A stretch of 346 bases of DNA from assembly GCF_003334335.1 (NCBI RefSeq), contig NZ_QOWQ01000211.1, one strand, 5' to 3'. The notes beneath the pieces are model-generated. The model was not told where the DNA came from. It worked only from the letters and a program-made list of their open reading frames with translations, and ran no database searches. Shown piece by piece: positions 258 through 346 of this stretch (positions are counted from its first letter, which is position 1; each line of letters opens with the position of its first letter). The translations under genes were made by a program, and so were the position numbers. Source of the stretch: Escherichia coli (lineage in GTDB: Bacteria; Pseudomonadota; Gammaproteobacteria; Enterobacterales; Enterobacteriaceae).

Positions 258-284
258 AAAAAAACGGGGAGTGCGTGCTCACCG
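258..284 (-). terminator. Weaker intrinsic-terminator-like element oriented for the - strand (imperfect stem directly followed by U7)
   Basis: Stem 265-271 (CGGGGAG) pairs with 278-284 (CTCACCG): 7 positions with one mismatch (G268/A281), loop 272-277. On the + strand it is immediately preceded by A7 (258-264), so on the - strand the stem is followed directly by UUUUUUU. The stem is short and imperfect, hence low confidence. Confidence 0.3.
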
Positions 285-346
285 AGAGCATGATACTTGT
301 GGTTGATAGTTATTTTTATCCGGCGACAAAGATATTGAGATGAGGG

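Follow-up and report, generated by a model that had tools for sequence, protein, structure and literature searches.

The hairpin formed by stem A and the adjoining U7 run, T3, is probably an ordinary Rho-independent terminator for leftward transcription and one of a cluster of such terminators in the spacer between a tail fibre assembly gene (tfa) and eib in an Escherichia coli Eib prophage; we put the probability of this reading at about 0.6. The analysis started from a stretch of 346 nucleotides, here called the window, in which the sequence-only reading had taken two overlapping stems, A and B, beside an A7/U7 tract for an antiterminator/terminator pair on the - strand. Half of that proposal is supported. 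Stem A followed by U7 has the geometry of a terminator on the - strand, and most relatives carry it as a canonical intrinsic terminator. The switch is not supported: stem B has only 5 bp on this strand and competes with stem A only in a minority allele, the one with A at position 281. The coordinates of the features are collected in Table 1.

Table 1. Features of the window, numbered from its first nucleotide.
Feature	Positions	Strand	Description
Tail fibre assembly gene, 3' end (DUF4376 / ORF-191A)	1..127	+	ORF 11..127; stop codon 125-127
T1	129..157	-	Found by terminator scan; hairpin 157-138, AGGGGC/GCCCCT, then CTCTTTTTT; -12.2 kcal/mol
T2	210..241	-	Found by terminator scan; hairpin 241-220, AAGGAGGC/GCCTCCTT, then AAATTTTTAT; -14.8 kcal/mol
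T3	258..284	-	Probable leftward intrinsic terminator: stem A, 284-278 with 271-265, then U7 264-258; weakened by U281·C268
Near-identical block, start	266..346	.	Near-identical in all Eib-prophage copies; alignment of 14 variants
Extended hairpin	269..298	+	Stem B plus 269-273 with 294-298; 12 bp, three G-U pairs; fold of 250-300, -14.5 kcal/mol, z = -2.86
Stem B	274..292	-	5-bp hairpin, 290-286 with 280-276; 275:291 is A·C; -6.5 kcal/mol
Polymorphic base	281	.	A in the window and in 14/59 copies in total; C in 45/59

The spacer between tfa and eib

In the closest genome, which is 99.7% identical to the window, positions 1-127 are the end of a DUF4376 tail fibre assembly gene. The RefSeq annotation places the DUF4376 protein at L001 5549-6127, equivalent to window positions -451 to 127, and the annotation of prophage P-EibA names the gene orf-191A. 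The next annotated gene, eib, begins about 460 nt to the right of the window; it encodes a YadA-like immunoglobulin-binding protein and lies on the same strand. The 680-nt spacer between the two genes carries no RefSeq-annotated feature, and the Eib paper PMC4352079 contains no promoter, upstream or terminator analysis.

Of 5,426 complete E. coli genomes, 27 contain matches to the window; these occupy 70-71 places, all of them chromosomal, with none on plasmids. A distant blastn search of the E. coli genomes returned the same 27 genomes and none further, and a search of one genome per species gave no match. Eight Eib-type phage records contain full-length matches, among them P-EibA of ECOR-9. 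Together with the window, 59 copies were compared; the 58 further ones came from phage records, viral contigs and gut metagenomes, and were collected with a search pattern that itself fixes columns 288-307. Over positions 240-300 the 59 copies fall into six haplotypes, and the exact haplotype of the window was found again only in L012.

Several other elements lie in the spacer. A 25-codon upstream ORF (MRAARYQIFFIYPMLNCFICIQIIL; L001 6721-6798, + strand) has AGGAG 7 nt before its ATG and ends 10 nt before the eib start; it is absent from the GER2 and P-EibC spacers. Upstream of eib there is also a perfect 12-bp inverted repeat, GGAAATTCCGAA...TTCGGAATTTCC (L001 ~6667-6706, + strand), annotated only as a stem_loop, in AF151091, which could be a regulator site, e.g. 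for IbrAB-dependent activation. Another inverted repeat, ATTGTGCT-N14-AGCACAAT, occupies L001 6483-6512, next to a chance-level - strand promoter-like match at 6544-6516. Some spacer variants (L007-L010) have an 11-nt tandem duplication (TTCAATGGTCA) at window-equivalent position ~470. Within the window, CAAAGATA is directly repeated at 251-258 and 328-335, and an inverted pair of A/T runs, 255-262 versus 313-320 (GATAAAAA / TTTTTATC), flanks the stems. When the - strand is folded at full length, upstream GGAUAAAAA forms pairs with the U tract.

Stems A and B and the base at position 281

Re-reading of the sequence confirmed where the A7 run and both stems had been placed. The A7 run (258-264) directly abuts stem A and reads as U7 on the - strand. 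On the + strand, stem A joins 265-271 (CGGGGAG) to 278-284 (CTCACCG) with the single mismatch G268:A281, and stem B joins 274-280 (CGTGCTC) to 286-292 (GAGCATG) through seven pairs, including G275-U291. The stems are indeed mutually exclusive, because 278-280 are common to both and an arm of stem A lies inside the loop of stem B. The description of stem B as a 7-bp stem on the - strand has to be corrected: the G-U pair becomes A·C there, in 59 of 59 copies, and so five contiguous pairs are left.

The overlap of such short stems is no more than chance. With seven positions and at most one mismatch, the window contains 21 stems, versus 14.6 +/- 4.6 in 2000 dinucleotide shuffles, and 95% of the shuffles hold overlapping stem pairs. 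The - strand fold of 250-300 has an energy of -6.8 kcal/mol (z = -0.40), and 69 of 200 shuffles fold as well. The combination of stem A with the U run exceeds chance once the relatives are read, since the GC stem is perfect in 45 of the 59 copies and the terminator scan flags T3 there.

The polymorphic base at 281 decides between the stems. With C281, the stem becomes a perfect GGGGAG/CTCCCC helix that is followed by U6-7 on the - strand, with one or two extra pairs in some copies. In the relatives, the T3 stem thus has 6-8 bp, of which 5-6 are GC pairs, and no mismatch, and U6 starts 1-2 nt past it. In the window, it has 3+3 bp around the U·C mismatch and a loop of 6 nt. T3 has the hairpin of a Rho-independent terminator (5 bp or more in the stem, with a 3-8 nt loop) as well as its U tract (5 or more U in 8 nt, 0-2 nt past the stem). 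The energy of the hairpin is -6.0 kcal/mol in the window versus -11.2 to -14.3 kcal/mol in the C281 relatives. Partition function calculations give stem A a probability of 0.09-0.14 in the window versus 0.85-1.0 in C281 copies, and stem B a probability of 0.62-0.63 versus 0.00.

In the - strand folds, stem A is favoured in C281 copies, and stem B is favoured only in A281 alleles, where alone it is an element of the minimum free energy fold. Accordingly, the nascent RNA favours the T3 hairpin in 45 of the 59 copies, but not in the window itself, where stem B is slightly more stable than T3. The scan flags T3, together with T1, T2 and T4, in L002 (PhiR5_2) and in L007, in each of which it reports five - strand sites, versus 0.9 and 0.6 expected from shuffles. 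The anatomy, orientation, conservation and thermodynamics of T3 can be read directly from the sequences.

The near-tie between the stems in the window is caused by the single substitution at 281 in the terminator stem. The competition is genuine in this copy, but it is owed to that one base. According to the folding model, the T3 copy of the window is weak and may not terminate.

The arrangement in the window does recall the trp, pyrBI, T-box and riboswitch attenuators, in which a U run comes after the second of two exclusive hairpins. The exclusive stems are nearly isoenergetic (-6.5 versus -6.0 kcal/mol), and on the - strand stem B, as the antiterminator, is transcribed before stem A, as the terminator. 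However, we regard a condition-dependent - strand attenuator as highly improbable. Stem A wins outright in 45 of 59 copies, in which stem B is not competitive (probability 0.00), and the A·C mismatch interrupts stem B in every copy. In contrast to the known attenuators, there is neither a sensor nor a regulated gene, and the antiterminator is the weaker hairpin in most copies. Searches of Rfam with the window (E up to 10) and with the whole PhiR5_2 spacer (E up to 1) gave at most hits at chance level. No leader ORF is conserved across the variants, and the - strand ORFs are broken by indels. Downstream of T3 on the - strand there is no gene to be regulated, only T2, T1 and tfa antisense, so that two constitutive terminators follow within 120 nt. 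Overlapping short stems are, moreover, what nearly all shuffles contain. Among the 59 copies there are no two-sided (compensatory) changes in either stem, in a set whose diversity is too low for covariation to be informative and whose columns 288-307 are fixed by the search pattern. The sole change that touches stem B is T276C, present in four copies; it breaks a pair on the + strand and leaves a G·U on the - strand. With no sensor, no downstream gene and, in most copies, no competitive antiterminator, the switch is unsupported.

On the + strand, stem B had been thought to bury the ATG at 290. There it extends to the 12-bp hairpin 269-298, whose three G-U pairs are specific to this strand, and the + strand fold of 128-346 reaches z = -4.08 in the window. 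The hairpin might hide the start of a small ORF (ATG 290 or GTG 275, end 343), or structure the late or eib transcript. We consider this very implausible. In folds of 258-346, the hairpin is dominant only in A281 alleles and is replaced by stem A in C281 copies; when only 258-300 is folded, the hairpin and stem A remain level in the commonest haplotype. In this haplotype z is -1.17 on the + strand, and both strands are at about -1.1. A conserved structured RNA on the + strand was rejected because of this fall from -4.08 to -1.17.

The burial of ATG 290 is likewise unsupported. The only Shine-Dalgarno-like sequence, GAGAG, lies 1 nt from the ATG, which is not a workable spacing, and the alternative start GTG275 is GCG in the P-EibA type, where T276C also breaks a pair of stem B. 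The 22-aa product matches no PHROG family. The same holds for the small ORFs on both strands of the spacer when nine sequences were compared with the PHROGs. Indels of 115, 2 and 11 nt shift the ORF frames between spacer variants, and the shared part of the 22/31-aa ORF has six non-synonymous versus two synonymous differences. A type I toxin or a lipoprotein signal, which was considered for the hydrophobic ORFs, was dropped in view of the missing PHROG families and the shifted frames.

Probable leftward terminators along the spacer

T3 is the third leftward terminator in the window. The terminator scan found T1 and T2 on the - strand of the window, versus 0.2 sites in shuffles, and no site on the + strand. 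In a divergent haplotype, the stem of T1 is kept while its loop is changed. Relatives add a fourth and a fifth terminator. T4 (GGGGAGCGTGCCGTCTCCCCG-T6) is located in a 115-nt insertion just to the right of the window in many relatives. T5 follows directly after orf-60 in several loci, and has the GGGGAG/CTCCCC stem of T3 with another loop.

The 115-nt insertion (L002 4352-4466) comes after window-equivalent position 357, is flanked by GAT microhomology, and holds T4 as well as another copy of the 16-nt box ATACAGAATTTTCGTA. The spacer exists in variants with one unit and with two units, and in a third version with a degraded hairpin (L004, L012). T5 is found at L002 6933-6951, which corresponds to L061 4315-4333, and lies ~2.8-3.1 kb to the right of the window start in many loci; its loop is CAACATG, TAAGTTAA or CTGCCAG.

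T5 (GGGGAGCATGTTGCTCCCC + CTTTTTTT) occupies a 42-nt gap between two + strand genes, a placement that fits insulation rather than the end of an RNA gene. As this gap comes after orf-60, leftward-facing terminators bracket the eib-orf156-orf60 cassette. The tfa-eib spacers of GER2 and P-EibC are unrelated to that of the window, and each has a leftward terminator of its own immediately behind the stop codon of tfa. The GER2 terminator (L060 3125-3153) reads AAAAAAACGGGGGTGATGCCTCACCCCC and resembles AAAAAAACGGGGAGTGCGTGCTCACCG of the window. It also shares the CTCACC arm seen in the A281 allele, and homology or recombination between the GER2 and window spacers is possible judging by this likeness.

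All of these hairpins, T1 to T5 as well as the GER2 and P-EibC ones that follow tfa, have an A5-7 run on their left, and only the GER2 hairpin has a T-rich tail on its right side that qualifies in the scan. The other hairpins are thus unidirectional and face leftward. None of the window's terminators is bidirectional, as the sequences that come after their hairpins on the + strand are AGAGCATG (T3), CACCCCTG (T2) and TGCTACAA (T1).

All convincing neighbouring genes are transcribed rightward, and no - strand gene or promoter was identified upstream of T3. PhiR5_2 has IbrB/IbrA ~20 kb to the right, and nearer than these its annotated - strand ORFs are limited to two of 49 aa in the spacer, which we judge from their sequences not to be conserved. 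Promoter-like matches on the - strand are at chance level (two found versus 2.8 expected), and the sole 9/12 match is the one at L001 6544-6516. Leftward transcription from an antiterminated early operon, if that is its source, would pass intrinsic terminators unhindered.

From established terminator biology, a leftward RNA polymerase would transcribe the GC hairpin of T3 and then pause on the U tract, and formation of the hairpin would release the transcript. The cluster would in this way keep - strand transcription out of the tail genes. Candidate origins of such transcription are the AT-rich region upstream of eib, prophage sequences further right, and the host. In the lineage of the window, a change from C to A at 281 puts the U·C mismatch into T3 and halves its stability. 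The 5-bp stem B is then equally favourable, T3 is predicted to be leaky, and the intact T2 and T1, 20-120 nt further on, would catch the read-through. Stem B would be a by-product rather than a regulatory partner. Termination at T3 in vivo, and which transcripts it would stop, we infer from the sequences.

With its GC-rich stem of 6-8 bp, loop of 6 nt and U6-7 directly after the stem, T3 agrees with canonical intrinsic terminators of E. coli and its phages. The copy in the window differs from them by its internal U·C mismatch and low stability (-6.0 kcal/mol), and T3 in general by facing all annotated neighbours save the two unsupported spacer ORFs. Clusters of terminators have a parallel in phage lambda, where tL2 was reportedly described as a tandem cluster by Luk and Szybalski in 1983. 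Like T1-T5, the tL2 cluster comprises several intrinsic terminators that follow one another on the same strand, in a stretch of a few hundred bases in a lambdoid genome. In lambda the clusters are situated within a known operon, and N overrides them, whereas the leftward transcription that would meet the Eib spacer cluster is inferred. The tfa-ea47 spacer of lambda was considered as a possible model, and has no leftward terminator after tfa. A moron is said to consist of a promoter, a gene and a terminator (a definition ascribed to Juhala et al., 2000). The Eib cluster resembles moron boundary terminators in its position at a mosaic boundary, where late tail genes meet an accessory cassette (eib). 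However, the terminator of a moron follows its own gene on the same strand, and those of the Eib spacer point in the other direction; a + strand stem-loop of its own lies downstream of eib.

A sharp mosaic boundary coincides with stem A: 105-265 are divergent and 266-346 near-identical. The divergent part, which includes the last 20 nt of the tfa gene, falls into two or three haplotype families that differ by ~12-25%. In 266-346, only columns 276, 281, 322 and 346 vary, with 288-307 fixed by the search pattern. The hairpins could accordingly be inert relics, terminators that were brought in with recombined modules and have lost their function, with A281 as a sign of decay. The exact coincidence of the boundary with stem A is in line with such a history, as are the tolerance of a crippling mismatch in 14 of 59 copies on three flanking backgrounds, and the adjoining 115-nt indel with its GAT microhomology. 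We nevertheless hold it to be quite unlikely. The hairpins and A runs of T1 and T2 are kept where loops and flanks have diverged by ~25%, five co-oriented sites are far more than shuffles lead one to expect, and the unrelated spacers of GER2 and P-EibC have a leftward terminator of their own in the same position.

A possible small RNA as the main rival

The main rival is a possible unannotated sRNA on the - strand of the spacer, of which T3, or T4 in relatives, would be the 3' end. It would begin with a 5' hairpin at ~334-313, continue with an unpaired C/A-rich stretch at ~312-285 and finish with the terminator, and some phages would carry two tandem units. Folds of 258-346 predict just this order of hairpin, linker and terminator with U6-7, and the near-invariance of columns 266-346 between divergent flanks also speaks for it. 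In the two-unit variants, each unit opens with the box TACGAAAATTCTGYAT and closes with a GGGGAGC...CTCCCCG-U6 terminator (overall similarity z = 7.2). There is also precedent for sRNAs embedded among prophage late genes in PasB (10.64898/2026.05.13.724894) and in the 66-nt HnrS (10.1101/2025.11.27.690950).

Like Pas sRNAs, HnrS, AgvB, AsxR, IsrK and DicF, the T3 region is intergenic among lambdoid late genes and has a terminator with a long U tract. Unlike these prophage sRNAs, it has no match in Rfam 15, which includes AgvB, AsxR, Esr41, STnc100, IsrK and DicF, and its sequence is confined to the 27 Eib-positive genomes. Identity with a Pas sRNA or HnrS was rejected, because the element is absent outside these 27 genomes, including from the type strains E2348/69 and Sakai. 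Further points speak against an sRNA: no promoter rises above chance, the two units do not resemble each other significantly in their bodies (z ~1), and the commonest haplotype has an unremarkable global fold on either strand (z ~ -1.1). At T1 and T5 there is not enough space for an RNA gene, and so the cluster can be explained without an sRNA. Altogether, we consider it rather unlikely that T3 is the end of an sRNA. A more detailed proposal, that the - strand block from 258 to ~440 is an sRNA specific to Eib prophages, present as two tandem units in many phages and extended by C281A to longer isoforms that end at T2 or T1, appears less likely still.

The natural pair of a strong (C281) and a weak (A281) allele could offer a ready-made test of antisense protection or of a hidden sRNA. 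What looked like an RNA switch is traced to one point mutation in the stem of a terminator. The cluster is an unannotated instance of a well-known class, the intrinsic terminators, and the main value of the finding lies in annotation, as it places leftward terminators at the junction of tail fibre genes and eib in Eib prophages. Three to five terminators that face a long array of rightward genes suggest that the late region of these prophages is shielded from antisense transcription.
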